Of a stretch of DNA of 64,000 bases, positions 780-55,069 are shown piece by piece. The stretch's first letter is position 1; each line of letters begins with the position of its first letter. The DNA comes from Gnetum montanum (Eukaryota > Plantae > Gnetophyta). The DNA lies in assembly GCA_015680685.1 (NCBI GenBank), contig MNCI01000909.1, positions 105,758-169,757 of the forward strand. Reading direction: 5' to 3'. The notes under the pieces are model-generated. The model was given only the letters and a program-made list of their open reading frames with translations. It made no database searches and had not been told where the DNA came from. Both the position numbers and the translations under genes were made by a program.

Positions 780-3700
780 TGATGGTTGGACCATGACAAT
801 CCCTTAGGCTAGTTGACCAAGACCCAAAGTATGCCATGCTTCGTAATGAGTAATACAACTTCATATGTGCAAAGATCCAAGTAGGGTTGCCTAATAGATT
901 ACCTTAACATGGAGGCAAAATGGGACTTTGAACTAATCCATAGGGATGAATAGGAGTATATCTCTTCCTCATTTAATATCATCCCACTCATAGAGTTCCA
1001 TCAACAGTTGTTGTTCTTGCTCATCTAAGTAGATGAGCATGCTGTAGGGATTGGCTACAAGGAAGCCTTACATTAGGAAGTGGACAAGTTCAAAGCTCAC
1101 TCTAAACATGAGCCCCCCTATCCCACCATCTTCCAACAAGAAATTCCTAAGTCTAGCCCCTCCTTAGGTTAGTTCACTTATCCACCTTGAGATGGTCATA
1201 ATACTAGGATCACCTTCCCATTCTATCATGCTTAGATCTATGCCTATTATGGAAACCCACTAGACGTAATACATGCATTACAATGCAATAACCCTTTTCC
1301 ACTTGCCCTTCATGGCATCATCTCTACCTACCTAACCATCCTTGTTAGTAATAATTATACTAGTTTAGCCATATGTTCATGTAAGACCCATCTCTAGGCC
1401 CCAAATGACTAAGGCAACCTATGTCCCACTTGCTTCATCAGTGCCCTTGGTGTTAGTCTAACCCATGTGTGCATGGCTTGCCCCAATTTCTATCCTTATA
1501 ACATAGCTGACACATCAAACACTTTGCATGTTTCTACAACTTGTGACTACGTCATGGACTACACAACTAGAATAATGAATAATACAACCATCATAACTAG
1601 TTGCAGCATCCCAAAATTTATACTAAGCATTCTAACTGATCCAAGCCTTGATAGAAGAGGTGAAGTGGCTTAAAGCCACCTCCTCCAAAATAGTTATGGT
1701 AGTGGACTTCTATTAGGAAAACCTTGTAAGTCTTGCCATCCTGTTGCTAACTCTACCAATTGAGATCCTACTACCCCAATTCACCAAGTACAATGGTAAA
1801 GAGAATCCCAATGCACATCTAGTGACATTCAAGTTTGAGTGCTTGCTGCTACAAGCCTAGCTTGACACTATTATGTGGTTGTTTTCCATGTCACTAACTA
1901 GCAAAGCCTTAGACTAGTACCATGTGCTACCCAGAGGCCCTATCTCCTCTCTAGAAGATATCTTGAGCTAGTTTGTGACATGCTTCAAGTATAACTAAAA
2001 GCCAGAGCAAACCTTGGACTAGCTAATGCAGGTCAAGTAAGATCCCCCTAGAGCCCATGCAAAAATTCATTCAACAATCTCGTTAAACAAAATATGAGAG
2101 CGCATAGTTGAGGCACAGCTCTTAGCTATCTTCAGGAGCATAGTTAATGATCTTATAAAATTGAAGCTTTACCATTTGGGCTTGTAGTCTCTAAGCTAAG
2201 CCTTTGCCCAGACCAAGAGCATACAAGATGTAGCTAAAGCTAGTAAGGACCTAGCCTACGTGGCCTATAAAAACTTGTATGCGAGGAAGGAAAAGGATAA
2301 AAAGAAGCAGAATGCAACTATGGAAATTGTGGTGAAAGAGGCTAAAGTAACCAACTTAAGGCCAATGACTAGGCTACCTAAGACTCCAGCCAACAACAAA
2401 GCTACTAGCCCTAGCATTGTAGTAACTAACTAGCCTATGTCAGTGGTGGCCATAGCGCAAGCTACTCCAAGACCTAACTTTGAGTAGAAGGATTGCTCCA
2501 AGTACATCCTATTGCCACTAAAGCTCTCAAAGTTACTAGAAAAATTGTTAAAGGCTAGGTGCATCCAATATAAAAAATATTTGAGGATGTTTGTAAAAGT
2601 TATGATAGATACTGCGAGTTGCTTAGAAACCCTACTTTGGCAACACCAAATGAGCCCCTAGTCCCAAAATATTTTAGGCTAAATTAGTTCTACCATTACC
2701 ACTAGTTGTTGGATCATAGCATAGATTTTTATCTAGCTTTGAAGGATGATATCCAAGACATGATTGACATAGCCAAGTTGTTCCTTGACTTTACAAACCT
2801 AGTCAGGCCTCAAAACCAATTTATGAGGATGTATAAGGACCCTTTGAATTCTGACAATGTAGGCTATGTCATAAATGTTATTAGCATTGATGACAACCTA
2901 GAACCAGTGCAATAGTCATTCATGATCAACGTGCCCTCTAGTAGTGCAAGGGCATCTGTGGCTCCTATGGGTTTAAGAACTTCTTTCATCATCAAAGTGC
3001 CACCTTAACCACCTACAACTTCCCTCATGATTAGGGTATCATAACATGTTGCAATAACAATGGTTCAACCATCCTTTGTTGTCAAGGGATCACAAAATAC
3101 TAACTCCTCACTTACCCATAGTCCAGTAGTGGGCAACACATTGTTTCCTTCCCATCCAAGAGATAATCCTATTGGCAACATTAATAGACCCTCTAAGTGG
3201 AAACCTAGGAGGACCAATGAGCATCTCATAGATAAAATGATTAGGCAACATCAAAAGCAAAGGTCACTAGGTGTTTCAAAGCTAGTTCCTATATCTATGA
3301 TCCTTATGGCCAAGAAAACTAAGGATGCCACCACTAGTAACTTGAAACCAAGCACTGAGGCCCTTGTGTAAGCCAAGGCAACAAAGCCCAAGTTGGCTCA
3401 CTGAAAAATTCATCTCTTAGGACATATGAAAGAAGTCAAAGAAAATTAAAATGTAATCAATGACAAAGACTTTTTGGATGCATTAGCTCAGTTTAAGAAA
3501 GCATTCAAATAGAAGAACATAATGTTGAGCTTCTATAACCTAATCATGGCCTCATATGTCTGCCATGAAGCACTAGTGCAGATGCTAACTTCCATTCTTG
3601 TCATAGAGGACATCTAGGCATATGAGAATTCCATTCATGTAGTGATGTTAGCTCATGAATTGTAGGAATCAAGATCCACATAACTTGCACTTCATGATGA

Positions 3701-4396
3701 GGTAATTAAGATCGACCCTAAGAAGGGTGAGGTCATTACAACCCCCATGTTTATCATCATACATGTCAAGAAATGCAAGATTCGAAGGGTTCATGTCAAC
3801 GATGGGGTAGCAAAAAATTTTATCCCATACATCAGCATCAATAACTTAGGCCTTATGGACTAAATCAAGCCAACAAAAATAACATGTCTAAGGTCCTTTA
3901 ATGGGTCATGCATCATTGTTAAGGGTACCATCACAATAGTATCTGTGGTAGGGGAGCAATTCCCCGCCACTACTAAATTCATTATCATAGAGAAAATGCC
4001 CAACTTTACCTTAATATTGGATAGGCTATGGTTGGCCCAATTATGGGTTGTCTCCTCTCTAATCCACCATGAAATCAACCTCCTATATGAAGGTGGCAAG
4101 GTTATTATCCATGGTGATAACATAGCCCCTCTAGCCATCAACAACATAGATATGGAGCAAGGGTCAAAGGTGGAATTTCTAGATGACATGTTCATAGCAA
4201 AGAATGAGAATGAAATGCATGAAGGAAACCTCACCTGAAAGGACAGAAGAAGTCAATGACTTACCAGAGGACAGCCTTTAGGTAGAATTTCCCTTCAACA
4301 TAGCAAGCGAGGGTCCAAGAGACTACTGAATAGTGCACTCTAGGCCCTATGCACCTCCTAACCGACACCAAATTAGGAAGCAACTACACAACTAAG
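780..4396 (+). pseudogene. gag: gag-protease remnant of element A
   Basis: FTKYNGKENPNAHL gag motif at ~1780. Protease region at ~3750-4130 (RVHVNDG.A.NFIPY ... LILDRLWLAQL ... SLIHHEI) is homologous to ORF 55529-55915 of C. Many stops and frameshifts. Confidence 0.8.
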
Positions 4397-4689
4397 GTAC
4401 CCCCTTAGCCTAAAATGTGTTAGGTGCCTACCTACCCTTTACTTACATGTGTCATGTATTTTTAACTTTTTCTTGCATTACATTTGTTTACATATTTACA
4501 TTTAGCTTGATTGCTAATATTATACATTGTTTTTCTTTGTTTACGCATTTATTTACTTTGATTATGCATTCATCTACTTAGTTTATGCACTTGCCCTATT
4601 AGTTCACACCTTCGCAATTATTAAAAAAACATCAAAATGCATAAAAACATAAAAGATAAAATTACAAAAAATACAGATAGCATTGTCCT

Positions 4690-5260
4690 AATATGGCCTT
4701 AAACTGGCAACATGTGGCCTACCAAGGGCTTAAATTGGCAACATGTGGCCTGCCATGGCCTTAAACTAGCAATGTTGTAGCTTACCATAGCCTTAAACTA
4801 GCAACGTTGTAGCTTATCATAGTCTTAAACTAGCAATGTTTCATCCTACCATGGCCTTAAAATGGCAACATTGTGGCCCTATATGGCCTTAAATTGGCAA
4901 CATGTGGCCTACAAAGGCCTTAAACTAGCAACACGTGGTCCACCATGGCCTTAAACTGGCAACGTTGTAGGCTACCATGGCCTTAAACTAGCAATATTAC
5001 AACTCGCCATGGCCTTAAATTGGTAATGTTGCAACTTGCTATGGCCATAAATTGGAAACATTGTAGCTTGAAATGGTCTTAAACTATTGCCCTTAAACTA
5101 GCAGTACACAGCCTGAAATGGCCTTAAACTAGCAATCACTGCAGCCCAAAATGGCCTTAAACTATCACCTTCAATCCCATCATAGTGGCCTAAGATGGCC
5201 TTAAACTAGCATTGACCCTCCCGCTATAGCCTTAAACTAGCATGGGTCTTACAATGGCCT
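4690..5260 (+). repeat. Tandem array, ~32 bp unit with core TGGCCTTAAACT(G/A)GCAAC, downstream of the protease
   Basis: About 17 consecutive degenerate copies of atggccttaaactagcaac are directly visible. Confidence 0.9.
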
Positions 5261-5479: not shown

Positions 5480-8400
5480 ATCTAGGTGATGCTCAGCTAG
5501 TGGTAATAGTGGGGGTGGCGACTTTGCTTCCTCCATTGTGTCACTGGGGCCTATAGTATTTCTTGGTACCTACCATAACCATAGAAAATATGTATGATAA
5601 TTATGCAAATATGCACTACACAAGCTAACTCCAACCATAAACAAACATAAAAAAACTATCCTAAGAGGGTCCCACATTAGTGAGTTCTAGAGGTAACTTT
5701 CTAGGGCTAGCCTCTAAGTGTTAGAGAATCTCAACCTCAGAAAGTTATATCCAGTTCTCCTAGCCAAAGTCAATCTTCACAAGGGTCTTGCATTTTTCCA
5801 TGGTGGTCTATGCAAGTAGCTTCATTGAAAAGGTAGTAGAAGAGGCCTCTCCAGAAGGGGTGATGATTTGGCTCTCAGGAGAGTCACTCACCACCGTGTG
5901 TTGCATAAACAACTCATATGCCTGCCTTTCACTAATCACCTCAAGAAACGTCTTGAGGTAGCAGTGTTTAGTAGACTCCTCCTTGTACCATTACATGTAT
6001 GTTTCATGCTCTCGATTATATTGGTGCTTGTCGTTCTTTTGCATTTACCCTCACTAATAGACCTTTATGCTATAATTTTCTCAATCTTGGTTCTTTTGGG
6101 AAAGCAAGTCCATCTAGAGCCATTACTCTATCAGCTCTCCTGTAGCATCATTCTTATCTTTGAGACTGGTCCAATATCTCACATACTTGATCTTAGAGGT
6201 ACACCAGGTGCTATCTACTTGTGATCTAGCTACTAAGAAGCCATATCTAGGTTGGAGATCTTTGGTCTTCATATCTTGGCTGGTCACCCTCTCTTATAGT
6301 TCATGCATGCATTTCCCACAATGGCTTCACATAGGAAAGTGCACACTTGTTCAATGTCTCTTACATGTGGCAAGGCACCTGATCATCTTCAGGAGGGAGG
6401 TTAGGAAGGGCATCCACCTTGGCCACCTTACTTGGATTCCACCATAGCTTAGGACCTATAGGCATACAATAATCGATTAATCTTAGTTGAAAACCAAGCA
6501 TTCAAGTAGTAAAGTAACATAAAGCAAAATAACATTACATACATACTGAGCTTAGGATCAAGTTGTCACAAGTGGTCCACCATGCTTACAACAACGCCTT
6601 CCATGAAGGTGATTTTATCTAGCATGTCTACCCATGGCTCTATGTGGTAGGTAGATGTGGGACCACTAGTGGGAATACTTAAGGCTGTAACACAATGATG
6701 CAATTAGCACATAGCTAAATAGCAAAAGATACTGGAGCAAACAGGCAATGACAGATGGCAACATAAGTTAGTTACCTAATAAGCCCTTAGGCATGACTGC
6801 ATGGGGGATCACCTTGCTTTGCACCATCAAACAAGCTATCAAAATCATTCCCATTAGGGTGGACCAACCCATCTTCCTCTAACTCTTGAAGGGTATTTAC
6901 TTCCTCATGTAGCTCATCTCCATGAGCCTCCTCATTCCCAGCTTGAGGAGATGCTTCCTTTGCTACCACCTTGGCCGCTGCCCTTGTAGCCCTCTCTCGT
7001 TTCTCTATGATTAACACATATAGCACATTAGTACACATAGAACATCATTAGCTAATTAGCAATATGGCATAACAAAAAAAACATATAAAAATAAAAATGT
7101 ATACATAAATATAACTAATGCACCATACTAACCTACAAGATCTACACGTAAGCTTTGAAGCTTGATGTGGATCCTCTTGCTACTTGGCTTCTTGATCGTA
7201 AGGGTATCCTCCTCCTTAGGACATTACCTATTGATCTTGGCCTTAGATGGCTGCACCATCTCTACTATATAATGGTCTACCTTGCTTATGTCCTTGGTGC
7301 CAACTAAAGGACCCTTGCCTCCATTATCACATGAGTAATGTGACACCCTACAGAACCCTTGGTCATTACTAATAATTATTCATTGATCTCCTCTAGGGGA
7401 TCCTATAAACATATAGCTAAAAACATGTGCTTGATCCATGGCCTAGACAACTACTCATGATTTTCTACCACCCATCACCCATCATCTCGTATAACCAAGG
7501 GCTCTATGAACCTTCATAGTATCCTACGAAGAACTCAAAGTGGATGTGGGACCTTGCCTAGAGGTTGAACTATAGTCTAGAGATCTTTGCATCTAGGTTA
7601 GTGGCTATATATGTAGCCTAGTTGAACCTTGTACCCTCTAGCAGCACCTCCTTTATTACCTATGCCTGTTCCACCCCAAGGATCTTTTGTTAGAAGAGCA
7701 ACTTTGAAAAAGCATGATCATGGAATAGAGGGTAAAGCTCGTACACCTCAAGTACTACCACATCTTTAATTAGTATGCTTTTGTGAGATCAAGTGGCACC
7801 CAACTAGTCTTCAATCTTTCCTCTATGGTTCACCTCCATGCTGGCCTTATCAACAATCATCCAACCATTAGTAGGGATGCCAAAGAGGTTAGTGAAGAAG
7901 GCCTCACTGAGGTCTAGCGCTACCATCATGCCACGCATTTGGGTGATAAATTGCCTAATGTCGCTACTAAAGGAGTCAATGATGATGACCATTTCCACCA
8001 CTGGGATACTTGGGCTAAGGGCCAAAAATAGTTCCATTAAGATAGTGTGCATGAGCTAATCCATTAGTGCATTTCATGCTTTGTGGCACAGCTAGTGTTT
8101 TGCACCCTCCACATTGTCATACTTCATGATAAGGGTGGCCTATGTGCATCACTATCATCTTAGCTAAGGAAACTACCATTGCAATAAAGGAAAATCAATG
8201 TCAATGTTAGCATCATGCAAATGAGGTAAATTGAAAGGCATAAATGAATAACCACATGATCCAAAACATAGATATGTACATGGTTCAAATGGGATGTGAG
8301 GTGAGGGTGGTGCTCCAATAATCTCCTTAGTGTTAATCTCCTTGGTAACCCACTACTCATCCAACTAGCTGTGGATCCTAAATTGCTCATATTCCTTCAG

Positions 8401-10430
8401 GTATCAGGTAGGGTAGGCCTCTAGATCAGGCCCCACTTGCTCAATCATAGCTACCCAAACATTCATGCTAGATGAGAACGCCTCCAAGTCAATGCATGTC
8501 AAGGCTAGAGCATCCACCTCATCATGCAATCCCTCATCATCAACTCTAAACCTAGCATTAATAATGAGCCATTAGCAATTTAGCTTGAGCTAGTAGTGAA
8601 AAAAAAAACACTGTGAGAACCATGAAAGCACTTATCCTTCAATGCAGTAGAAAATTATAGGTGGGTTCTAGAATAGGATATGCACCCATAGCACAATAAA
8701 AAGGGTGTTACTCTTATTATAACAAGCAAACTCAATCATCCTAGATAGCTGCCAAGTGCTCCTAGGACCTCTGCTTGAATCACTTGCCCTATTAATGCTA
8801 GTTGTGGGCTCATCTGTTATAAATTTCAAGATGTCCTAGTTAGCCTTGGGCAACAACGTCTCAGTGATGACACTAGTAGCATTCACAATCAACTATGACC
8901 ACATGATCATACTAAAATGTTGTAGTAGGTATTCTAGGAACTCATGAGCCCTTATTGAAACCACACTACTTGATGGCCCACCTACATATCTGGTGCAAGC
9001 ATGTTAGGAATAGGTTTGCTTATGTAGCATAAGATGACCACAAGCTTAACTACAATTAGAATAGGCTTCAATAGCATCTTGAAACCTACCAATAATAAGC
9101 AAAACATTAGTATACATACATATAATAAGCAAAACATTAGTATACATACATAGATGCAAATTTTGACATTAAATTATTACGATAAGTTAGTAAAATTAGC
9201 ATAATGTAACATGAACTAACAAAGAAAAAAATCCTAATCTTGGCAATGCACTTTGGGGCCTCGTGGGTATAGGAGTTCAACCAACTCATGCACCATGCCT
9301 TGTACTCACTAGGGTACAACACAATTTCATAGGCTTAGCACTACATTTTATAATCTTAACATTAAGCATAGTTAACAAAACATTTCTGCAAAATCTCTCT
9401 AACTTTGAACTACCTCCATGGAGAGCTTAGTCCAAACTTTTTACAAAATTTTTCTAAGTCCAGACTACCTTCATGTAGAGTGTAGTCCAAAAAATTGCAA
9501 CATTTTTCTAACTCTAGACTACCTCCATGAAGAGCATGACCTAAAAAACTGCAAAATGTTTCTAACTCCTAGTTGCCTCCAAAAAAAAGGGACAAAATTT
9601 TTCTAACTCTAGGACCACCCTGAATACACACTAAAACATGGAGAGCATAGTCCACCCCCCACCCACCCAAAAAAAACATCAAAAAAATGTAGGACATATC
9701 CCTACCTCGTCCTTTGCCCCTATGATAGGCTATTCCCTGGTCACCGCTAAAACCCTGGTATCCCTTAAGGCCTCACTACAAAGTGTGACTCATGGGAGCC
9801 TAACCCATAGTGCCTATCCTTGCACCCCAAGCTCCTACCCACAAATCCTATGCATGCATGCCCTAAAACCTCCACAATGAAACTTGCATTGTCTTGACCC
9901 TATGGCCATGCCAAAGAAGAAGATAGAATGCAATGACATTTGTAGAGATGCAAGGCCTCCAAATCCTACAATCCCAAAATCCCATCCATAGCCCCTGTGG
10001 TTGCACTATGCCACACAGCAGTAGCCATTTTCTTCATGACCATGCCATGAAATGTAATGTACTATCCTCCCTAATTCCATGTGTAGCAAAAATAGACCAA
10101 ACCCTTCCCACCATCATGCCCTCCCTACAATCACACTACTCTGAAATGATGCATGATTAAGTGGCCACCACCATGGCAAGGCACCATGATAGGACACATA
10201 AGAGACTATGCTTCCAAACCCTCATCAAGGATAAAAATAAATAAAAAGTATGCAAATGAATAAAAAGAGAGGAGAGTGTAGTTGGTGTACCTAGTTCATG
10301 CCAATGACCTCCTCTTCTCCACATGATCCTATGATCAGTGGCCTAGTACTCTCTTACCCTTGATGATGTTTACTAGTCCTAGGTGCAGGCATCCACTCCG
10401 GTGTGTCATTCTACCTAACTATGCTCTTCA
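5480..10430 (-). pseudogene. Antisense multi-exon accessory gene of element A (FCP1/NIF-like domain, central transposon-accessory-like domain, acidic/coiled-coil tail)
   Basis: Exons ~9085-8636, 8551-8280, 8163-7133, 7004-6776, 6684-6547, 6455-~5660, 5569-~5480, plus a possible first exon ~10430-10291. Translations align by eye with 50770-54370 of C, e.g. PKLWWNPSKVAKVDALPNLP vs PNLGWDLNKLVKVDALPSLP. GT-AG-type introns fall at matching positions. Confidence 0.85.
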
Positions 10431-10877
10431 TTGGTAGCAGAAAAATAGTAATGACAAGGTTACACTATAGATTTCATGGTTAAAAGTAAGAAAATGACAA
10501 CTTGCCCATGTTGAAAACTCATCTATATACCCTCCCAAGGTCATTTAATGGTCCACCAACTTGAAACTACACTACACACTGAAGGCCAAGTGGAGAGTAT
10601 AGTTGGTTGAGAGCATAGTCAACTATACTTAGCCCAATATTGTAATTATTTTGACAACCCTGCACATGCTTGAGTTAACTTAGCATGGCTAGCCCTCCAT
10701 GGAATGGCATGTTTGACACATCCATGGTCCACTAAGACCTAAAACTAGCATGCATATGGTCTGCCAAGGCCTAAAACTACACAAACATGCTTGCCACTCA
10801 TAAAAAATTGCATATATACTTAGCCAAACCTCATTGCATTATTTTTTCCATTTGTGCACATTGACTTTGTGAAACAG

Positions 10878-13800
10878 GTACTGCTTGATGTTTTTCTAGC
10901 TGATTTTGCAAGAACATGACATGGCTATGCTCGAGCAGGTACTCTTACCTCTGGTCCTCATGGGGCCTCAAGGCAACATTAAGTGATGTATTGACCCTCA
11001 TTGTCTTGACCTTGAGCCTACAACCTATGCTAAATACATAGCCTTTGTAGAAGCACCACTAGATTGGCTTGATCATCTAGTTAAGGCTCTTGACCTAGAG
11101 GTAGGGGACGTCATATAGGATTTCCTTATTGAGATCCCTATGACAACACATAATGGTAAGGCAGGAACACTAAAGCTAAGTTCCTTGCTACAGCCCCAAA
11201 ATGCCTAGGAGATCGCTAGAGTGCTCAATGATAACATCAAAGCCTTTGCATGATCATACGAAGACATGTTAGGCCTAGATCCTCAACTAGTCCAACACAA
11301 TGTCATCCTTGACCCTTGCATTAAACCAATTAAGCAAAAAGCATTCAAGGTTAGGCTTGAGATGGCATTGGTAGTTTGTGATGAAATCACCATGCTTTAC
11401 AAAGAAGGGTTTTTTTGGGGTTATTGACTATGTAGACTAGGTCTCCAACATCATTGTTGTGCCTAAACAAGGAAACCATCAAATATGACTTCCCATTGCT
11501 TAGTATTAATTAGTTGATCAATACCATGGCTAGACGTGCCTTGTTGTCCTTCATGGATAGGTTCTCGAGCTACAACCAAATTAGGATCAACCTTGAGCAT
11601 CGACTTAGTACAACCTTCATGATCCCTTGGTGTATGGTTTACTATACCATGATGCCTTTTGGACTAAATAATGCAAGGGCAATGTATCAATGTGCAATGA
11701 GATATATTTTTAGTGATTTCATGCTAAGTTTGCTCAATGAATACATCAATGACATTGCAACTAAATCCAAAGTGGTCCATGATCATGCAAATGATCTAGA
11801 CTTAGTGCTTAAACATTACCTGAGACATGAGGTTAGGTTAAATCAAAAGAAGTATTTCTTTTGACATTATAATGGTTTAGATGCTTGGTTTTGTAGTATT
11901 CAAAATAGGTATACATGTAGACCTCGATAAGGTTAATGCCATAACCAATTTAGCACCAATGGAAAATCTTAAGGAGCTACGAGGGTTGCAAGGTAGACTA
12001 TAATTCATACACAATTTTATCACCCAGTTAATTGATAAGATACAACCAATGCAACATCTAGTCAAGAAAGGAGCTCACTTCAGGGGGATAGCTCAATGCC
12101 AACAAGCATTTGACAACCTTAAGAAAGAGCTAGCACAACTACCTATGATTCACCCTTCACAAGGAGATAAACCTTTTTACATTTACCTCACCACTTCTGA
12201 CATGTCATCACCTCTTTGCTTTATCAAAAGTGAGATGATGGTGCAAAGATCTCGATTTACTACCTAAGCCATGCATTAGTATCCCATGAGATGAAATACA
12301 ATGATGTGAAAAAGCACTACCTCACCATAGTCTTCTCAATTAAGAAGTGGAGGCATTAACTCTTCCATAGTCAAGTTAATATCATTTCCTAAAATAATGT
12401 ACTCTAAGTGATAACAAAAGGTCATAACAGTAGAGTTTGACCTACAGTACGTTGCTCAAGCCTCAACAAAAGGTCAAGCTATAGCCGCATAGCTTATGGT
12501 TTTTCCAGTTGATAATCAGGCCACTATAGACCCTAAATTCTTGGACAAGCATGTTAATAGTGTTAGGAAAGTGCCTAACAACTATGAGGCACTCTTACAT
12601 TTTGATAGAGCTTCAACCTTTCAAGTGGGTAGTGTCACAATCATCATCATGTTTCCCTATTTGGATATCTAACCCTTCACATATTGTTTTGCATTTCCTT
12701 GCACTAACAATGTGGCAAAGTACAAAGGTCTCCTCTAAGGTATCCTTGTAGCATGTGACCTAGGGATCCAACACATAGTGATTCAAGGTAACTCATAACT
12801 AGTGATCAACCAAGTGATAGTGGTTTATGCCAGTAAAGCATAACATCTACAACCTTGCTGTGACTTGGCAAAGTATCTACTTTAATACTTTGCAATTACT
12901 GATGTCCAACATATCCCCAGAAATGAAAATTCCATTGCCAATGCACTAGCAATGTTAGTCCTTGGCATTGCACCTAGCATATTCCACACATTGCATACCT
13001 TGATGGTAGATTGCACTATGACTATCATCCAAATCATTGACATTGCATCCATAGCCATAGTAAGCACAACCCATGTAGCAAAGTGGTATGATGAAATCAA
13101 GGCACACCTTCTACAAGGTAAGCCTCCACAACATTTGACTACTACCTAAAAAGATGTAGTACATAAATGTTTGTGGTAGTACATCATCATAGGTGATAAC
13201 ACATTATGTCATAGATCCTACAATAGCATACTACTAACTTGCATAAGCAATAGTGAAGCATAAAAGATTGTTGAGCAAGTCCATGAGGGACTATGTGGAG
13301 GTCACATAGCACCTAGGATAATGACAACAAAAATCAAATAGCTAGGGTATTATTGCCTTACATGGAGAGAAATTGTGTTTTGAAGGTCCAAACATGCAAC
13401 ATTTGTCAATGACATGGCAACTCAATGCTCATGCCACCAACTAAATTTCATACAACACAAATCATGTGGCTATTCCAACATTGGGGCTTGGACATCATTA
13501 GACCCATAATGCCTAAGTCCTCTATAGGGCATAACTTCATACTAACTACAACTAAGTATTTCACCAAATGGGTTGAGGCTATTTCCCTTAGGAAGACGAC
13601 ATCATAGCAGGTTTGCAAATTCGTCTTAAATAACATAGTGATCCATTTTAAGTTACCTATGGCCATAGTAATGGATAATGGGCTGTAGTTTAGTAGTGCT
13701 AAAACTAAAGCCTTTTGTGAGCACTTTGGCATCAAGCATTCCTTCCTATTGCCATACTATCCTTAGGAAAATGGTGAAGAAGAGGCCACTAATAAGATCA

Positions 13801-14323
13801 TTTTCAACCTTCTCAAGAAAATGCTAAGCAATAGCAAATGATAATGGCATGACAAACTAGTCTACACACTTTGGGCCTACTACACAACGCACCAAATAGC
13901 AATAGGTATGATGCCTTATAGTTTCATTTATGGGTTTGAAGCAATACTGCCACTTGACTTGCAGATTCCATCATTCTGGGTAATCCTCTTAAACTTCATC
14001 AATGAAGGTCAAAACAACAAGTTGAGAACCATAGACCTCAAGTCAATAGAGGAGGAGCACATGCGCATGCTTGATCACATTGAATGATACTAAGAAAAGA
14101 AATGGAAAAAGTACCATCACAACTAGCATTAGTTCTTGATCATGAAAGGGGACCTAGTCCTCAAGGTCATTTGCAAACCCACAACTAAATTCTCAGCTAA
14201 TTAGGAAAGGCCTTTCTTGGTCACTAGGGCCTATGACAATGAAGCATTCAACTGTGCTGATCAAGACAAAAATGAGTTTGCCAATCTAGTGAACCATTTG
14301 AACCTGAAGTTGTATTATATCTA
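10878..14323 (+). pseudogene. pol: pol remnant of element A: RT (~11230-11930), RNase H, archaeal-type RNase H (~12590-12960), integrase (~13180-14320)
   Basis: LLSFMDRFSSYNQI, MPFGLNNARAMYQ, EYINDI (YxDD), PFYIYL, FPCTNNVAKY, HEGLCGGH, WGLDII, YFTKWVEAI. Confidence 0.95.
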
Positions 14324-14374
14324 ACATGTAGCATCACACATCAATCAAGCAAGATAGGCATAGCACTCATTCTC

Positions 14375-41074: not shown

Positions 41075-42011
41075 TTAGCCTCTATTTGTTGATGTCTATA
41101 GGATTAATCCAAGAGACATTGACAAAGAATACAAAACACCACTATAGGTCCATCACCAATGTCTTTTCTTTGCACTTGATTTAGTATTATCAAACCATGC
41201 TTAGGAGTGCTCATGATGATGGAGTGAGGCTATGATGATGAAATGGTAATGAGGTCATGAAGAAATGGTTGAAATGGCTAATAAATATTTGGTCAAATGG
41301 CTCAAATTATGTACTTCATGTTTATATGTGTGGTTCACTTAGTGGATGTGCTTGAGGTCTGAACAATTCACTCTAAGGTTTCCTTGGCTATTAGCAAGGT
41401 CCTCTTCACCAAGGCTAATTTTGATGTGATTTTACCATTAATAATGTTAGATTCAATGGACTTGGGATTTTCCCATTCAATGAGGTGTGTTACACTTGAT
41501 GGACTTATAATTTTTCCACTAAACAAGATGTGTTACATTTAAGTGGACTTGGAGGTGGAGCATAATGAAAGGATTCCATATGGCCATGATGCATGAGTGT
41601 TAGCATAGGTCAACATTGTTGCTTAAGGTGCAAGAGGTTATATTTAGACTACAAGGTTGGGCTCAAAGGAAACAATGTGGAATAAGCACTTTTGATATGG
41701 TAGGTAAAATTCATTGAGCCTTGCACATCGAGGTTATATGGTAACTTGCTACCATGATGAGTTACATCCTTGTGATGGCTTTAGGCTTCATCCTGGAAAC
41801 ACAACTCAAATAGAACAACAAAACTAGAGAAATAAATGATGTTTTTACAATGGGATACATTAGGCCACTAAGGATGGTTTAGCAAATTTGGCTACCCAAG
41901 GTCACATGTTACTAGTTGAAGGTGTTGGCAAGTTGCATTACTCGTTTAAGACTTTGGCAAGCTATGGTATCAGTTTAGAGTCATAGCTAATCATAGAGAT
42001 TAGGCTACAAG

Positions 42012-45000
42012 CTACAATTAGTATTTTTTGAGATGGGAATGATTGACTAGATTGGCTAGCTCATTTTCATTCTTGTTTTCTATTCTAAATGCACTATTGC
42101 CATAGGCTTTAGTAACCAAGAAAGGCCCTTCCTAGTTGACTGAGAATTTATCCATGTGGTTGTAGATGACTTTGAGAACTAGGTCACCTTCCTTGATCTT
42201 ATGCATGGTTAAGGTATGGTGGTGTTGCCACTTTTGCATCTCTTAATAGTATTCAATCTAACTAAGTGCATGCATACATTGCTCCTCCATCGATTCCAGG
42301 GCCATTATCCACAACTCCTTCTGCTCATCATTGATGAAGTCAGTTAAGGTTACCTAAAGTAATGGTTCCTACAATTTAAGAGGTAAAATAGCTACAAAAC
42401 CATAAACAAGGCTATAAGGGGTCATGCTTGTTGTAGTACATTATGTTGTTCTATAAGCCCAAAGTGCATGGAGAAGTCATTCATGCCATTTATGCCTATT
42501 GATGTTGAGCATCTTCTTGAGCAAGTTGATGATGTCCTTATTACTTACCTCTAATTGTCCATTGACATGAGGGTAATAAGGCAATGAGAAAGAATGCTTA
42601 ATTCCTAGGTTGTGATAGAAATCCTTGGTTTCTTGGCTACTAAATTATGATCCATTTTTTGTAACTATGGTTATGGGTATGCCAAAACTAGCTACAATGA
42701 TATGCAGGATAAATTTACAAAATTTTTCAAACATTGTCTTTCTCAAGGGAATAGCTTCAATCTACTTAGTAAAGTATTTGGTTGCAGTGATGATGAAGCT
42801 ATGCCCAGCTAAAGACTTAGGTGTTATAGATCCAATGATATCCAACCCCCATCATTAAAACAGCCAAGTGATCTAAGTGGTATGTAGCTTAGTTGGTAGT
42901 ACGTGTATAAGATTACTATTCCATTGGCATGTATAACAATGCTTAAACTTCTACAACTAGTCATCTTCTATTTAGGGTTGGTGATAACCTAACCATCTAA
43001 TCATAGTAGCCATGGCTCTAGGTCCTATATGTTCCCCACAAAAACCTTCAAGAACCTCCTCTAGGACTATTTTGACTTTAGTTTTACCTAAGCATTTTAA
43101 CAATACATCATCATATGATCATCAAAATAATGTGCTATTACGTATAATAACATACTACTTTGATCATTTGTACATAGTGTCCTTTTGAGCAAAAATCATG
43201 CCTTGTGAAGACTCACCATGGATAAGGTAAAACTTCATATCATTGAACCACTCCTTCACAAGAGTGGTATGAACTATGACCACAAAGGTATCTATTGCAC
43301 TTTTCATGATGGTTGTAGCACAATCCATAGTCAATGTGGACAACTTACTAAACACATCTAGTGTAACATATAGGGCTAACATTGTAATGACATTGGCTAT
43401 GGTGTTCTTGTTTTATGGTATGTGTTGGATATTAGCATCTATAAATTTTTGTGACCGTTGCTTTCCCAAGTTATAGTAAGGTTTTAAGTGTTTGTCTTTA
43501 CATGCATAAACCTCAGTCACTTTGTTGATCACTAGTTAAGAATCATCCTTGACTATCAAACATTTAATTCCTAGGTCATCTACTACCATCATTCCCCTAA
43601 TCAAACTCTCATAATTCACTATGTTGTTAGTGCATGGAACCTTGAAATGATAGGTAAAGGGCTAGATTTCACTAGATGGAAACATCATGATGGTAGTGGC
43701 ACTAGTCCCATGCGTAGTTGAATCTTTCTCAAACTTCAAGACTACCTCATAATCCTTGTGCACTTGGCAAATGGTGTTGACATGTTCATTAGGAAACTCA
43801 TGGTCTATAGTTGCTTGGTCATCAATAGGTGAAATAGTAAGTTGTACTATACCTTGACCTTTTCATTGAGGATTGAGAGACATAATGAAGGTTAAAATCC
43901 ACTATTATGGCTTTTCATTAGGCCATAAAAATAGTGCTCCTAATGGCTCTAACTATGTTATCTTTGCAAATGATGTTGACCTAGCTCCTAAAGAGGTAGT
44001 GTCTTTACTTCTTCAATGAGAAGACTAGTGTTAGGCAATACTTCTCCACTTTAGAATATCTAGTCTTGTGATCAACTAATGCATGGCTAAGGTAATATAT
44101 TGGCATCTGTGCTCCATCATCATGTTTTTGATGAAGTAGAGAAGTAATAAATGTGCCAGAAATGACAAGGTAGATATAAAATGGCTTACCCTCTTGTAGA
44201 GGATAGACCATTAATAGTTATGCCAATTCTTGCTTAAGGTTTTCAAAGGCTTCATGGCATTGAATTGTCCACTCATAGTGAACTCCTTTCTTAAGCAAGT
44301 GTTGCATGGACTATAACTTATCTATAAGCCTAACAATAAACCTATGAATAAATTGTAATCTTCCTTGTAATCCCTAAAGCTCCTTAATTTTGGTAGGTGC
44401 TACTAATTTGGATATGGCCTTAACCTTATCAGGATTGACACAAGTCCTTGCTTCAGATACTACAAAGCTAAGCATCTTACTAATGTTGAAACCTAAAACA
44501 CATTTCTTGGGATTGAGCCTAATCTCATATTTGATGCATCACTTAACCATAAGGTCTAGGTCATTAGTGTGATGACTAGCCACTTTGAACTTAATGACTA
44601 TATCATCCATATAATCGTTGAGAAAACCTAGCTTGTAATCACTGAAGATATAGGTCATGGTTCATTGATAGGTTGCTCCTAGGTTCTTAAGGCCAAAGGG
44701 CATCATGATATAGTAAAGGGTAACTTAAGGGATCATGAAGGTCATTCTAAGTTGGTGCTCTAGGTTGATCCTAATTTGGTTGTACCCGGAGAATCCATCC
44801 ATAAAGGATATTAAGGCATGTCCAGCCATAGTATCAATGAGTTAATCAATACTAGGAAGAGGAAAGCCATCATTAATGGTTTTCTTATTTAGATATTGGA
44901 AATTAATGCAAATATGGATACATCCATTTTTCTTAGGGACTACCACAATGTTGGATACCTAGTCTACATAGTCAATAGTTCTAATAAAACTAGCTTGGTA

Positions 45001-45490
45001 TAGCTTTGTGATTTCATCATGAATTGGCAAAGCTAAATCTAGTCTAATCTTGCACACATTTTGCTTAATTGGTCTAATGCTAGGATCGTGTATGATGTTG
45101 TGCTAGACTAGCCATGGATCTACACTTGGCATATCTTCCTATGACTAGGAAAAGGCCTTAATGTTGTCCTATAGGACCTTGGTGATGTTTTGAGCCTATC
45201 ATGGTTCTAGTGAGGAACTTAGTTTAAGTGTTTTCTCATCACCACTATGTGTTGTGATAGGAAACTTATCCATATAGTCTTCAATTATGTCAAAAACCTC
45301 TAGATCAAAGGTTTTAACTAGGTTTTTAGGCCATTCTAGAGGTTCTTCAATTAAGGCTATATGATTGACAAGACTCTTAGGCTAAAGATCCAAGCAATCA
45401 TGATCGATAGGTCATTCAATAGTACTGTGAGGCCCCCTCATGCTCAAAGGTAAGAAAAGTTTCTTCCAAGTACCCATCATTTGATCTTTC
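42012..45490 (-). pseudogene. pol: pol remnant of element C (RT-RH-aRH-INT)
   Basis: ISFMDGFSGYNQI, MPFGLKNLGATYQ, DYMDDI, KPFYIYL, PCTNNIVNYE, YFTK*IEAI. Confidence 0.95.
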
Positions 45491-45615
45491 ATAGCAACCA
45501 TAAGCACATTAAGTAACACTTGGGTTGAAATAAGTAAACAATGGTAAAATGATTTAGTAAACATGCAAACATATGCTATTTCAATGACAAACAAAAACAA
45601 AAACAAGGTCAACTA

Positions 45616-49259: not shown

Positions 49260-52200
49260 TTTCTACATTTTCTACTCCTTATTTCATCATCATGATGAAG
49301 AAAATGATGCCTATGAGGAATCCTACATTGTAGGAGGTAAATGCCACTACTAAGACTCTAGCATGCCTACCCGATCTAAGGATTGCAAAGAGTTCCAAGT
49401 ACACCATTCTCATTAGTTTTCTATTCTATTTCATGCATTCTATTTTTAGTTTTGAATTTTTTTTAGATCTATGCTTGTGTACTTGTTATTTTTTATTTTT
49501 ACTTAAATCCTACCTCATACTTTTGCCATTTCTACATCTGTCCATGGTTATTTAGTTGTTTTCACTTTGGAAAATTTAGTTTGTAAAATAGGCTTGCTAT
49601 TTAAGTGGTTTTATATATTAAAAAAATTAGCATGGCGATCTAGCATGAAGGATCTAATAAAATTAAATTTTAATAAAATCCTACCCCCATTATTTTGATT
49701 TTTTTAAAATGATTATTAGTTGATTTGGTTGTATTTGCTATAATCAATGGCTAGATTAAGTTAGATTATAAACGTTTTGTGATTTTTAAAATATATTGTT
49801 ATTGGTTTATAGGATTATCTTTTATCTTTCCAATAGTTATGGTCCCATTCAACTTGGAGTTCTAGTGATGAAGTTATGGTCGTTTGAGTGGAGTTGTGTA
49901 ACTAGGGTTTCTATCATTTCTCAAATTTTGTGAAAGTTCACAAATTTTTTCTGAGAAAATGACAAGGACTTTGAATTTTCTATTGCATGGACATGTAGGA
50001 ATTTATTTAGCCTTTCAAAAAATGATACAATCACTTTGTTTTGATCTCAAATGAATTTTTGGCAAATTTTTTGCTAACCTTGCATGAAAGGGAGTTCATG
50101 TTCATGGCTATGGTGTAGTTAATTTGGTAATTTTTTTTGAAAACTAGCTTAAGATTTCTAATTTTCTTATATTATGGTGATGTATTTATCATTTTGTAAT
50201 TCCAATGGCTATGGAATCATTGAATTTATTTAAGTGATTAATTAGTTATGATTGTTTCTATTTAGTTACACAAGATTGTGGTTACAAGGCTATGATGCAT
50301 TTACCCCTCTGAAGATGGGAAATCTTGAGGTTATGAAAAAGTTTTTATATCAATGTCCATGATCTTGGAGTACTTTGGAATGGTAGGAAGGCACTAGAAG
50401 TTGTTTGATTCAAATTAAAAAAAATTTCATATTTTTTCTAAGTATTTTCCTATGGTCATTTTGGTGCTATGTGTGAAATTCGGTTGAATGCTATTGTATT
50501 CTTACATTGTGTATTGAAATATTTTCTAAGTGTAGAGTTATTCATGAAATCATAGAATTTAGTTCTATACAATCATTTTCAAACTTTTAGTCCTAAACTA
50601 TCAATTCCATTTTTTATTGCAATTTGTCATTGTTACAGTTTTAGTTGTAAATAGTCTTTTCGTATGAACTACTTTAAATCTTGTCTAAGTGTTTTTTTCT
50701 ATGTTTAATACTTATAGGTATTTGGTTTTAATTTTTCATGGTTATAATTATTGTGTTTGGATGTTACAGGACCTTCTTGAAACCCATCTTGATGGTGATA
50801 GAGATGATTGAGTTATTATGATGCATCAACATGCTAACACCTAAATAACCAAGCCTCAGACTTCCTATCCTACCTCCTTCATAACTATAGTGTGATAGTT
50901 TGGTCACACTTGAAGTTCAAGGTGGTGGAAATGATCATGAAGATCATCATGCCAAGATCCTCTAGTTTGATTATGAAATTCATCAGGGATAATCCTAGTC
51001 CATGCAAAAGGAAAGACACATGATGAAATGACTACTATGGGTCCTCATAAACTATCTCAAATTTGGGAGATGCCCAAATTTAGATAGTAGAACTTGGAAA
51101 ACACCTTGATTGTTGGCCATTGTGCCCACACATGGTTCCAAAACCCTTTTCGCATTGTCTATTGCATAGAGGGGTAAGTAGTATTATTATCTTGGGTTTA
51201 TGGTTATTTTATATCATTGTGTATTTACGCTATAACTATGTATGGTCTATCGTTTTACTTACCTATAGGTTTAGGATGGATGATCAAGGTTGAGAACCTT
51301 TTACTCCTAGCTCACATAGCTCTAGAGGTGTTCACTAAGAGTCCAAAAATGAGGTCTTTGGTGTTAGAGAAATTGCATGATGACCTTGAAAGTAGCATTG
51401 GACATCACCCTAAGGCCTACAAGAGATGCCTAGTAAGTGAGAGCATAGATAGTTGGTGGGCTAGCTCATCTATTAATGATTTTGACTTGGAACCACAACC
51501 CATAGCTCCTACGATTTTGAGTCATATAGGTGAAGTGTTATTAATTTTTTGATTTTATGCTAATAGTTTTCTACTTATATAGTTATTAAGATATTTTGAT
51601 CTCTGTTGTTTATGTGGTTATATTTTTTGTAACTTGTTGCACCTATGCAAAGGCTAACGAGCTACCTTTTTCTATGTTGCAGCTATCACTTCAAGATGTA
51701 TGGAGGAGACCTTGATCCTTAAGTTTAATGAGGTGGAATCCTCACAGGACTAGTTATGAGATCAGGCATCTAATGCTATGCATGTGAGGGTCATTCATGC
51801 AGGCATGTTTGACCTCTTCATGGCCCCAAGCTTGATTGTTCCTACCATAGAAATGTTAAACATTATAAACTCCTTTAACCAAGGAGATCAGAGAGTTTTC
51901 ACTTATGTTCATGGTGTGACTATTGTTTTGGACATCAATGGATCCACATTCAATGACCTCTTTGATGTCTTAAATGATGGCATGTTAGTTATTATCAAAG
52001 TGAGGGGAGAGGTGGATCACTAAGAAGAAGTGGAAAATTGGTTAGATACTCATCTTAATAGCAAGGAATAATCTCTAAGAGAGATCAAATCATCATTGAT
52101 TAGAAAGATATATCCCTTGTTTCGATCCTAGGTGTTTCCTATGTTGTTATCCCAAGGAAAGATCTTGGGTGTGGAACAAGCTAGGACACCTGATTCAATT

Positions 52201-54370
52201 GGACCATCCACTTGGTTTTTGGGTTTCAATTGGAGGTCCAAAAACATCATGAGAACCTCACTATAATGTGCCATGTGCATTTTACACACTTTGTAGCTTA
52301 ATTGCAAAGGTTTGTGGAATTTTTGATGATGAGAAAGGATGGAAAATGGGGTGCCCAAGATCTATCTCAATTTGATAGGCATTGGATGAATTTTCTTGCT
52401 CCAACCACCAAGGGTAAAGATCCATTGAAAGCTATAGATGAAACATTGTATGTCACCACCAAAGACCTTGATGGAAAACATTGTAGATATCTTAATAGCA
52501 CTTGGGTTAAGCCTATTACCATAGCAGCTAGCATCAAGAAGGCTTAGAGATTATCTGCAAAGGTTGAGGATACAACTATGGAGAAATTTAAGATGCCTTT
52601 AGTAGACTAGACAGTGCCACAAGTTGAGGAGCCTCTTATGAAAAATATGATCATAAGGCTAAGATGGATGTAGACTGACATCAAAGGTACATATCTTGTC
52701 AATTCATTACTTTATTGTTACTTTGCTCAAATGCTATTGTTGCCTTATGTCTTTTTATAATATACTAAGTTGCTCATGGTTGGTGCCTCTTACAAATAAG
52801 AACCAAGAGTGGGAGGTTATAGTAGTAGCAGCTACTATTGAAGAGGAGTGAAGGTGTCAAGAGGAGGAGGAGATGCAACATTGGGAGGAAGAGATATTGA
52901 AGCATTATGAGGATGATGTGTTGGAAGATCAAGACATGCCTACCTTTCTTTCTATGGATGCATTTGATGCCATGCTAGAAGTTTGAGAGTTGAATGAACT
53001 CCCATTTGTAATGCTCGATGAATTTTTAGGTACTTATAAGTTTTGGTTCTAAGTGGTATATATGTTATGTTTCATTGATTCCTGTTTAGTAATGGTCATT
53101 ATCATTGATTGTTTACTACATCTTGCTATAGCTCAAGAGCCTCTATATGTAACCATGGGTGAAAACCCTTGATAAATTGGAATTAATGTGGGGTGTAGCT
53201 AAATATATGGTTATCCAATTGCAAAAAATAGTTCTTGAGATTAGTAAAAATTTTAACTCATTTTGCCTTTAGTGCTTTTTAATATTTTTGATCTATTACT
53301 TGGTTTTTATGGTTATGTAATTTTTTCTGCTAATTGGTTTCATTTTGTTATATTTTGTTCCATGTTGGTTATAGTGCCTAACCTAGGATGGGATCTTAAC
53401 AAACTGGTTAAGGTTGATGCATTGCCTTCCTTACCTTTGAATATTTAGAATGTTCCATGTAAGTTGTATGAGGGTGCCACTATATGTGCACTCTCATGTG
53501 CTAAGTATTCGTGGGAATGTAGATATTCTAATGAGTTCCTATAAAAACAAGTCATAGCATTGAGGAATGAGAACAAAAAATTAAAAGAAAAGGTAACAGA
53601 CATCAAGGACTATAGAGACTTCATAGAGGCTTAGGTAATCAACAAAAAATCTTTACATACTAAGGAGATGCTCTATTCTTGCTACTAGAATGCACTTCAA
53701 AGCAAGATTCCCCTTACTAAAGAAATCATACAATAGAAGCTTTAGATTAATCTCATCAACTACAAGGTTGGTGAGTGAAAGGACTTCTATGCTTTGGTCC
53801 TTGAGTGGGGTCATAAACAAAAGGACCACAAGAGGATCTATAAGGCTAAGCGAGATGCTTACCTTAAGTGGCTACAAGAGGAGTCTATGGAGAGGTAGAA
53901 GCTAGAGTTTTTTATGATGGAAATTAATGTGTAGGATGTCTATAAGATATTCATGAATAATGTGGCTATAGCTACTTCTCCCACTTGTCAATTCAGCACT
54001 ACCTCAGGGGACTCAACCTCAGCCACATTTTTGCATGAGCATCCTACATGGACTAATGTTAATCAAACTAGTATCCTCATGGGTCTTGATCTTGGGGATG
54101 TTGACTTAGTAAGCATCTCTGAAGATGAACTCCTCCACTATCTAGAGGTTGGTCTTTAGACATTTCCCATAAAACATACAACTCTTGAACCATCTCCGAT
54201 TAGTTCATTTAATTTTAATTTCATTAATTTTAGTTTTGATGTTTATTGGTTGCTAATCAATTTTGGTGTTGTCATGTTATAGGCACTAGAAGACATCAAT
54301 GGCCCTAGTAGTAGAAAGAGAAATGATGATCCACCTCCTTTACTAGAGGTTTCATGGTTCCACGAGTTAC
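49260..54370 (+). pseudogene. Antisense multi-exon accessory gene of element C (homologue of 5480-10430)
   Basis: Acceptors at 50769, 51268, 51682, ~52800, ~53131, 53374 and 54282; donors at 49399, 51174, 52687 and 53030. ORF 51778-52023 aligns with ORF 7804-8052. ORFs at 52302, 53263 (3' end) and 53953 also have counterparts in A. Confidence 0.85.
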
Positions 54371-54810: not shown

Positions 54811-55069
54811 ATCATAGAGAATGTAAAAGTAATAGTTTTTATGATGTTTGTTCATCAAGAAAAACTAAAAATTATTTAAAAGAAAATAGACATAAAATAA
54901 ATAAATTCTATGCCACTAGTAAATTTAAATTTAAACCCAATAGAAATGAAATGGTACCAATAAGTAAATTCTAATCTAGGCTATTAGGCTATGAATGTTA
55001 TAAAGTCACACGACTACAAATACATAGGGCATGAGAATGATTAGGAGCCTATATCACTTGTGCAAGTGT

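Follow-up and report, generated by a model that had tools for sequence, protein, structure and literature searches.

An antisense gene with predicted introns and a probable pseudo-phosphatase domain in a Tat-type retrotransposon family of Gnetum montanum

Two retroelements and the antisense gene that they share

The window (the whole 64-kb stretch of Gnetum montanum DNA analysed here) contains two long retroelements, A and C, and a portion of another, B, which is cut upstream of its gag-PR/RT spacer. The order and orientation of the parts are identical in A and C, and the DNA identity of all parts lies between 56 and 65%:

1750..4395, + strand: gag-protease region of element A, ending in a stop aligned with a stop of C
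4686..5243, + strand: array of 32-bp tandem repeats, between gag-PR and the 3' end of the accessory gene
5650..6455, - strand: last exon of the accessory gene, copy A; conserved block, likely coiled coil, C-terminal domain
6547..6684, - strand: exon 5, copy A
6776..7004, - strand: exon 4, copy A; acidic linker
7133..8172, - strand: exon 3, copy A; about 345 codons, conserved, 33% identity to C over 162 ungapped codons
8280..8551, - strand: exon 2, copy A; end of the HAD domain and linker
8552..8635, - strand: 84-nt intron inside the domain, copy A; donor reads AT, acceptor AG
8636..9085, - strand: pseudo-NIF exon, copy A; most of the domain, one frameshift near 8955, four in-frame stops
9387..9568, + strand: 54-bp tandem repeats upstream of the accessory gene
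10875..14332, + strand: pol of element A; Pfam order RVT_1, RT_RNaseH, RVT_3, rve (RT, RNase H, aRH, integrase)
42004..45522, - strand: pol of element C (RT-RH-aRH-INT), 65% DNA identity to A
50770..51173, + strand: pseudo-NIF exon, copy C; two frameshifts
51174..51268, + strand: 95-nt intron, copy C; GT..AG, positioned as in A
51269..54200, + strand: exons 2-6, copy C; four more introns at positions matching A
55054..57252, - strand: gag-protease region of element C, 58% DNA identity to A

Judging by the order of its Pfam domains, the carrier is a Tat-type Ty3/gypsy retrotransposon: RT-RH-INT with an additional aRH is the hallmark of Tat (OTA) elements, and RT, RH and aRH are also matched in pol of element C. 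The gag-protease region of element A has no Pfam match, and we take it to be gag and PR from its motifs and position. A search for LTRs found one 480-bp pair, 60% identical, flanking A, and none for C. The PR-RT spacer of these elements spans 6.5-9.5 kb; an aligned stop after PR and an acceptor-like AG ahead of pol are seen in A and B.

In both elements the spacer holds an accessory gene, antisense and lodged between gag-PR and RT-RH-aRH-INT. It consists of six exons, with a product of about 950-980 aa that starts with a pseudo-NIF domain. The five introns are T-rich, GC-poor gaps of 84-153 nt at matching positions in A and C, with AG acceptors at 5/5 in A and GT donors at 5/5 in C. The initial annotation had placed a frameshift at 'IEG|FR.DD', which instead crosses the first of these introns (8635-8552 in A, 51174-51268 in C). 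The pseudo-NIF exon of C is about 46 nt shorter than that of A, owing to a deletion after motif I. Both copies are much decayed, with 42 stops in 587 aligned codon pairs of A and C and a CpG observed/expected ratio of 0.11. RNA reads mapped to the gene numbered 2 and 12, all of them partial, and none of these contained a splice joint. There is no third copy of the gene within the window.

The last exon of A is 31% identical to C over 186 ungapped codons, and coiled-coil-type Pfam families match it weakly in C. Exon 3 yielded no match in Pfam scans; its best PDB match (E 0.036) is an unrelated dehydratase, and its ESM matches are unnamed or thioredoxin-like, with low feature counts. Its likeness to PMD is presumed from a motif. 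PMD, Transposase_28 and Athila ORF1 had no Pfam match at E up to 10 with filters on, in copies that are decayed, and no BRCT match was found on any scanned accessory exon, at a sensitivity lowered by the decay. The gene has no ubiquitin-like domain. Scans of viral contigs with exon 3 and with the integrase revealed no relative, and a DNA pattern of the element's exon-intron junction had 0 matches in metagenomes.

Identity of the N-terminal domain

The Pfam NIF family (PF03031) matches copy C with E=0.0013. The stop-free piece of C at 50850-51002 reaches E=0.00039, but at 20.6 bits it stays below the cut-off of 21.8, and copy A alone has no Pfam match. In the ESM Atlas, NIF accounts for 28/30 matches (top score 0.90). 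Further comparisons relied on a profile of host DLNG-type genes (10 such genes, metagenome-derived relatives). With the window cut into 858 six-frame chunks, this profile picked out C (E 7.5e-6) and A (E 1.2e-4) and nothing else, the next chunk having E 2.1; a profile of five plant genes gave weak signals on the same kind of chunks (E 0.04 for C, E 1.7 for A). X-read A and C scored 30.9 and 23.0 bits against the host profile, or 35.4 and 24.9 bits with the frame of one short C piece corrected, and the best of 1000 shuffles scored 5.2 bits. Alignment of the domain with the host genes by hhalign gave 97.6% (E 4e-12), against 0.1-0.8% for three controls.

Counted from the motif I nucleophile to the following Phe, A has 35.7 codons, compared with 35-36 for host DLNG genes and 26 for UBLCP1; by this spacing A carries the long insert that, after motif I and ahead of the RP..F motif, marks the DLNG-type subfamily. 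Among 177,635 PDB sequences, the sole match of the A+C profile is UBLCP1, colinear across 96 columns, at E=0.48 and 1.7, which is not significant alone. A PDB search with a single frame of C yielded matches at chance level. No alignment with SCP1 reached significance. A partial structure model (106 aa) from the element sequences only had a pLDDT of 42.5. The corresponding host-assisted model (pLDDT 61.7, likewise partial, 106 aa) produced a generic alpha/beta match (best Z 6.2), with some HAD hydrolases at Z 4.3-5.2 and FCP/SCP chains absent from the top 50 fold matches. Neither the protein homologue searches (4, 1245 and 415 candidates) nor a full HMMER search of 1.84 billion representatives found an intact relative.

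The host-profile, hhalign and ESM matches bear out the earlier proposal that an FCP1/NIF-like HAD domain opens the accessory gene. At the level of profile comparison, it is confirmed that A and C encode what appears to be a captured, decayed NIF/FCP1-homology HAD domain, whose closest relatives seem to be the host DLNG-type subfamily and not FCP1/SCP. FCP1 or SCP as donor is rejected, since DLNG-type relatives are nearest and the nearest solved structure is UBLCP1. The peptides quoted initially are present in the sequence, except that 'YNKSNTLLLCY' of A mixes two frames; the in-frame reading is NTLFIVLWVHILF*NP, and it aligns with C and the host genes.

The catalytic columns, selection and copy number

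In copy A two of the catalytic motifs read as follows:

9036..9047, - strand: motif I columns, K-L-V-V (host D-L-N-G)
8689..8694, - strand: motif IV columns, Val-Leu (host DD)

Copy C has E-M-I-E in motif I and G-H in motif IV. The register of motif IV is ungapped between NT and NP in both copies, and the hosts keep DD and the Lys in 10/10 aligned sequences. Motif II retains its Ser/Thr (WS in A and C). The motif III Lys is replaced by Arg in A and His in C in the UBLCP1 and host register, this being the least certain alignment column. In neither copy do the three Asp columns or the Lys column keep the host residue, as the initial annotation had proposed for the Asp residues. The DxDx that it ascribed to the donor family has to be corrected, as the donor has D-L-N-G, with one Asp in motif I.

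The columns can also be followed in further copies, as had been proposed. Mapped contigs at least 80% alike comprised 35 in one run (X1) and 45 in another (X9), which bears another species label; the tally of base changes listed 40 of 272 difference rows. Among the differences listed, the nucleophile codon is Glu in 74% (X1) and 76% (X9) of the depth, and the fourth (Gly) column of motif I is Gly in 87% and 85%, respectively. At the nucleophile, Glu thus takes the place of Asp in C and across roughly three quarters of the A-like depth, and the Lys of A is a decay product of this Glu. In X1 no G>C place at 15% or more occurs among the differences listed, so the second DD column is not Asp in that run. 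A minority of copies may have GAT at the nucleophile, and the first DD column may be Asp. A second mapping had no difference of at least 42% over the DD columns, but it was clipped at its edges, where known differences were lost too, and it carries little weight.

The initial annotation had attributed part of the Asp loss to decay after insertion. C>T/G>A decay of an Asp codon yields only Asn, and 6/6 Asp-column codons require a transversion or a reverse transition. Since, in addition, other copies read Glu, the loss does not appear to be post-insertion decay; judged from the codons it is real in both copies. The pseudo-phosphatase reading put forward at the outset is in agreement with the replacement of the catalytic columns in both copies.

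The blocks in which codon positions were compared were chosen by tblastx, which favours amino-acid similarity; within them, transversions between A and C over 118 domain codons are 0.19/0.17/0.47 by codon position (p 7e-7), compared with 0.26/0.17/0.33 in the other accessory exons and 0.12/0.09/0.25 in pol. Third positions have diverged far faster than first and second ones, which argues for selection on the fold after the loss of catalysis. The third-position values of the accessory gene exceed that of pol, and the module may therefore have a history of its own. Amino acid identity between A and C is 38% in the domain and 28-49% in the other accessory exons. Contigs matching 951 bases number 2759 and 2376 under two species labels, which marks the family as high-copy; the copies read at full length are two, A and C, both decayed.

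Relation to known systems and possible role of the domain

Host DLNG-type FCP1-homology proteins (NIF, PF03031; here loci L080, L009, L060, L034 and L074, which match Pfam NIF with E 1e-13 to 1e-19) are found in plants, algae and other eukaryotes. The element domain is colinear with them over about 170 aa and shares their motif order and motif I-to-Phe spacing. It differs in that the nucleophile Asp, the Asn, the Lys and DD are replaced, in having 0/4 of the angiosperm intron positions, and in being fused to about 780 aa of unrelated sequence within a retroelement. UBLCP1 (PDB 3shq), the only PDB sequence matched by the element profile, is likewise the only one matched by host L080 (E 3e-4). 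UBLCP1, FCP1 and SCP1/CTDSP1 are described as active, with DxDxT/V (PMC7281111, PMC9608770). Unlike UBLCP1 and FCP1, the element gene lacks a ubiquitin-like or BRCT domain, and the UBLCP1 motif spacing is shorter.

The elements resemble Ogre and Retand in the RT-RH-aRH-INT order, and Tat/OTA elements in general (Ogre, Retand, TatIII/V) in having PR with gag and apart from pol, internal tandem repeats, and an extra antisense gene that probably encodes a coiled coil close to its end (PMC6317226, PMC4408406, PMC11963269). The extra ORFs described so far in Tat/OTA elements are found on the 5' side of gag or the 3' side of pol, and their products are PMD, Transposase_28 or Athila ORF1 (PMC6317226, PMC4408406, PMC11963269), whereas the gene described here sits in the interval from PR to RT, is split by five introns and opens with a pseudo-HAD domain. 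In Ogre the spacer between gag-PR and RT averages 274 bp, far below the length seen here. In orchids, a high-copy Tat-type family has likewise fixed the domain of a host enzyme, AlkB-like 2-ODD (PMC9289625), but there the domain is active, as a demethylase, and is encoded by a plain second ORF. The domains named in the sections consulted of that study's screen of 121 angiosperm genomes do not include NIF (PMC9289625), and no earlier description of a retrotransposon with a NIF pseudo-phosphatase gene was found in the literature searched.

Inactive or element-linked phosphatase modules exist among host genes. Fungal Tim50 reportedly belongs to the same Pfam family, has an imperfect motif, is inactive and acts by binding (PMC8346121); MAIL3 joins a phosphatase domain to a TE-derived domain, and PMD-PP7/PP7L modules are reported to take part in TE control (PMC7156037). 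Unlike the gene in these elements, Tim50 and the PMD-PP7/PP7L modules (MAIN, MAIL1, MAIL3) are host genes, and the PP7 fold is a different phosphatase fold. PP7L is inactive.

We consider it rather probable that this Tat-type family carries a six-exon antisense gene in which a dead DLNG-type NIF domain serves as a non-catalytic docking or decoy module, aiding replication or escape from host control: a pseudo-phosphatase domain kept by selection without its catalytic residues is likely to be a binding module that helps the element to multiply. An ancestral element would have acquired the domain from the host, and since the host intron positions are absent, it probably did so by way of a spliced mRNA. 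The shared Glu suggests a single loss of catalysis that preceded the split of the A and C subfamilies, after which the columns would have drifted with the scaffold under selection. Transcription of the gene would start at an antisense promoter of its own; as the genomic RNA corresponds to the opposite strand, the introns would not be lost in retrotransposition. To reach pol, the element would splice out or skip the block of 6.5-9.5 kb, in the manner of Ogre, whose gag-PR/RT intron is much shorter. The product would likely bind a partner or substrate of a host phosphatase without turnover, and the gene may, as initially suggested, have an anti-silencing role. The fuller scenario, in which an undescribed Tat-type lineage uses its spliced antisense gene of about 950 aa and a retro-captured pseudo-phosphatase decoy to block or hijack a host phosphatase pathway and so to stay transcribed, is tentative and, as a whole, doubtful.

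A different and, in our view, unlikely possibility is that a captured gene, of host origin or brought by an inserted DNA transposon, has the dead domain merely as its structural N-terminus, selected for folding, with the function residing downstream. The multi-intron structure and flanking tandem repeats would fit insertion at the DNA level. Third-position change is faster in the accessory exons (0.33-0.47) than in pol (0.25), in keeping with a possible separate history of the module, and PMDs of Tat elements are related to those of MULEs (PMC4408406). Against this, the domain is conserved like the other exons, though a separate N-terminal domain could be freely lost, and neither a transposase nor a terminal inverted repeat was seen in the spacer. 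It is quite improbable that the domain is a substrate trap for the phosphorylated CTD of RNA polymerase II, shielding or recruiting Pol II at the element. Such a trap would agree with the Pfam family shared with FCP1/SCP, with the Ser retained in motif II of A and C, and with the reported lack of any part for the catalytic Asp residues of SCP1 in substrate binding (PMC7281111). The binding of phospho-CTD suggested in the initial annotation is nevertheless unsupported, as the nearest relatives are DLNG-type and the nearest structure is that of UBLCP1, BRCT is missing, and the phosphate- and Mg-holding Lys and DD columns are replaced; no paper on the substrate of DLNG-type genes was found in the literature searched.

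The retention of Glu and Gly in motif I and Ser in motif II in most copies could instead indicate a pocket remodelled for another ligand or chemistry, such as Glu-based catalysis or the binding of a nucleotide or metabolite. This is very improbable, given that motif IV is Val-Leu in one subfamily and Gly-His in the other and that the second column of motif I is hydrophobic, as expected of unconstrained sites. Hardly credible, finally, is a domain active in the transposing element that lost its Asp residues afterwards: the heavy decay of both copies and the decayed Glu under the Lys of A would suit it, but it is largely refuted by the codon changes, which decay alone cannot reach, and by the Glu common to C and most A-like copies under two species labels.

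LTR retrotransposons rarely have fixed extra domains; those that exist indicate host controls which an element has to evade, and the biochemistry of most known ones (PMD, Transposase_28) is not known. In the present case the fold of the captured domain is known, a counterpart exists in the host, and the domain has been kept after the loss of catalysis, which makes its partner directly testable. If the decoy reading is true, the gene would represent a retrotransposon-encoded counter-defence and provide a handle on the substrate of the host DLNG-type phosphatase. Surveys based on ORFs would overlook intron-bearing antisense genes between PR and RT, and genes of this kind may accordingly be common across plant genomes that are large and old.

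Nested elements and an antisense accessory gene

The DNA of the window is plant-like and shows strong depletion of CpG (observed/expected 0.11) and CNG (0.22); it is made up of old Ty3/gypsy elements nested within one another. Two of these, A and C, share an accessory gene and are mirror images, with C on the minus strand. Their gag and PR labels are putative, from motifs and position; Pfam found no match in the gag-PR regions.

Features of the window
about 1750-4395, plus: element A gag-PR
10875-14332, plus: element A RT-RH-aRH-INT (Pfam RVT_1, RT_RNaseH, RVT_3, rve)
57252-55054, minus: element C gag-PR
45522-42004, minus: element C pol
9085-8636, minus, and 50770-51173, plus: first accessory-gene domain of A and C
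9092-9152: a 30-bp unit perfectly duplicated in tandem, within intron-like sequence immediately upstream of the A domain
32600-39310: element B, a third pol of the family (63-66% to A and C); part of its spacer matches C, and the accessory gene is absent from B within the window
22133-32226, minus: separate Ty3/gypsy element, presumably chromovirus-like (RT motifs), inserted upstream of the B spacer, with a ~490-bp LTR pair 82-89% identical
28763-29132: ~370-bp AT-rich imperfect palindrome within that insertion
4686-5243, 14396-14661, 54680-54806, 46000-48450: element-specific tandem arrays; a ~32-bp unit is shared by the arrays that follow gag-PR and integrase in A and the array that follows gag-PR in C
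57883-58672 and 63065-64000: direct repeat of ~650-900 bp (78%), its copies separated by 5.3 kb, together with a tandem array of 105 bp; the copies may be LTRs of a further element

In element A, a 32-bp tandem array and a 6.5-kb spacer lie between gag-PR and pol. The identity of A to C is 58% in gag-PR and 65% in pol, and in the two spacer blocks that could be aligned it is 56-57%; no LTR pair of either was resolved within the window. The elements share with Ogre and Retand an aRH that follows RH and precedes INT (PMC6317226).

The spacers of A and C contain colinear coding blocks antisense to gag-pol, of which two, 162 and 186 codons long, align without gaps. The five gaps between blocks (84-153 nt, T-rich and GC-poor) occupy matching positions in both copies; allowing one base either side of the assumed boundary, 5/5 end in AG and 4/5 start with GT in A, and 5/5 start with GT and 4/5 end in AG in C. 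The gene thus outlined comprises ~950-980 codons in six located exons, the NIF-like domain being the first of them; no start codon or exon ahead of these was located, and Pfam, PDB and ESM searches gave no identity for exons 3-6. The stretch 8250-9200 is high-copy, with 2759 contigs in sequencing run X1 and 2376 in run X9, of another species label, at 80% likeness or more, and some of its words occur under five species labels.

A NIF domain without its catalytic residues

The initial annotation placed an FCP1/NIF-like HAD domain at the head of this gene, and profile comparisons bear this out. Pfam itself does so in part: C matches NIF (PF03031; E 0.0013 and 0.00039; 20.6 bits against a cut-off of 21.8), and A has no domain match. 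An ESM feature search returned NIF in 28/30 matches, and an A+C profile had a single match among 177,635 PDB sequences, UBLCP1 (E 0.48), which acts on the proteasome. Donor-family sequences came from a metagenome scan with the motif quoted in the initial annotation (102 loci); ten full domains were used, and Pfam recognized NIF in all four scanned. The ten-host profile, run against 858 six-frame chunks of the window, matched C (E 7.5e-6) and A (E 1.2e-4) only, the next chunk having E 2.1. Read through stops and frameshifts, A and C score 35.4 and 24.9 bits, far above 1000 shuffles, and hhalign of the A+C and host profiles gave 97.6%, the controls (the alignment reversed, and two further exons) staying below 1%. 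Predicted structures added no support: pLDDT was 42.5 when host rows were left out and 61.7 when they were included, fold matches were generic alpha/beta, and no FCP/SCP chain was among the top 50. On these sequence comparisons we consider the NIF domain real in both copies. The distance from nucleophile to conserved Phe (35.7 codons in A, 35-36 in plant hosts, 26 in UBLCP1) points to the host subfamily with motif I D-L-N-G (DLNG-type).

Residues at the catalytic columns, in the order A / C / host
Nucleophile: K / E / D
Motif I, second position: V / I / N
Gly of motif I: V / E / G
Motif II: S / S / S
Motif III (least certain): R / H / K
Motif IV: V-L / G-H / D-D

The catalytic Asp columns are thus replaced in both copies, as first noted. 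The stated loss of DxDx holds for the nucleophile; the second Asp is already Asn in the donor family. The roles of both FCP1/SCP Asp residues are described in the accessible part of PMC7281111. DD and Lys are kept in 10/10 host domains, a set picked by motif I and so informative only for these residues.

It had been suggested that part of the Asp loss could be post-insertion decay. Methylation decay turns an Asp codon into Asn alone, and all six observed codons require a transversion or a reverse transition, which places them beyond its reach. Among the other genomic copies, Glu accounts for 74% (X1) and 76% (X9) of depth at the nucleophile codon, and Gly for 87% and 85% at the Gly column; these majorities make E-L-x-G the most likely motif I of the family that transposed, common to both subfamilies, which are 38% identical in the domain. 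In X1 no G>C difference reaches 15%, which at this threshold excludes Asp from the second DD column; the difference rows listed (40 of 272) cover the other columns in part.

Host DLNG-type genes (L080, L009, L060, L003, L026, L034, L073, L074) have Asn for the general-acid Asp and keep nucleophile, Lys and DD; L074 is short, AT-rich and intronless. Literature searches yielded no activity or substrate for this family; HAD Ser/Thr phosphatases are listed in the accessible part of PMC9608770.

Selection, origin and role

Transversions at the three codon positions are 0.19, 0.17 and 0.47 (p 7e-7) in 118 aligned domain codons, 0.26, 0.17 and 0.33 in the other accessory exons (469 codons) and 0.12, 0.09 and 0.25 in pol/PR (896 codons), in blocks picked by tblastx, which favours a low-first/second, high-third pattern. 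The frame of the domain was fixed independently, by the host match, and its third-position excess therefore argues that the fold was retained after catalytic loss. We accordingly read the domain, from codon patterns and alignments, as a selected, catalytically dead NIF/HAD domain, encoded by an antisense gene nested in a Tat-type retrotransposon.

In angiosperm host genes, introns sit at four places: ahead of the RP motif, behind WSS, behind NP and ahead of GGDL. The element exon is uninterrupted at the first three sites and has its own intron ten codons past NP, which fits capture of the host domain from mRNA with later intron gain. These introns would persist through RNA-based replication because the gene is antisense to the replicating RNA.

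The gag-PR stop is aligned in A (4393-4395) and C (55056-55054); pol opens immediately after an acceptor-like AG in A (10890-10915) and B (34790-34810), with an in-frame ATG in B (34790-34810) and C (45520-45500). Pol may be expressed via a spliced or separate transcript. From two RNA runs, 2 and 12 partial reads matched the stretch 8250-9200, with no splice joint seen. Ogre splices out a short intron at this position (PMC6317226, accessible text).

By analogy, the role of the dead domain is most likely binding, and it would act without catalysis; phospho-CTD is a possible but unlikely partner. PP7L is inactive. Precedents are fungal Tim50, for binding (PMC8346121), and, for the control of TEs, the PMD-PP7 modules (PMC7156037).

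Extra ORFs of Tat elements, as far as the accessible text of PMC4408406, PMC6317226 and PMC11963269 goes, are placed on the 5' side of gag or the 3' side of pol, and their products are PMD, Transposase_28 or Athila ORF1; the accessory gene of A and C lies between gag-PR and pol. The word 'phosphatase' does not occur in the accessible text of PMC11963269, NIF is not among the domains named in that of a screen of 121 angiosperm genomes (PMC9289625), and the supplements of PMC6317226, which perhaps do not include the full domain table, have no NIF/FCP1/HAD entry. Searches of open full texts turned up no paper describing a NIF domain carried by a retroelement, or a nested antisense gene between gag-PR and RT. 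Extra ORFs of Tat elements are already known; a nested antisense gene with a dead NIF/HAD domain is an unusual layout for a Tat-type retrotransposon.
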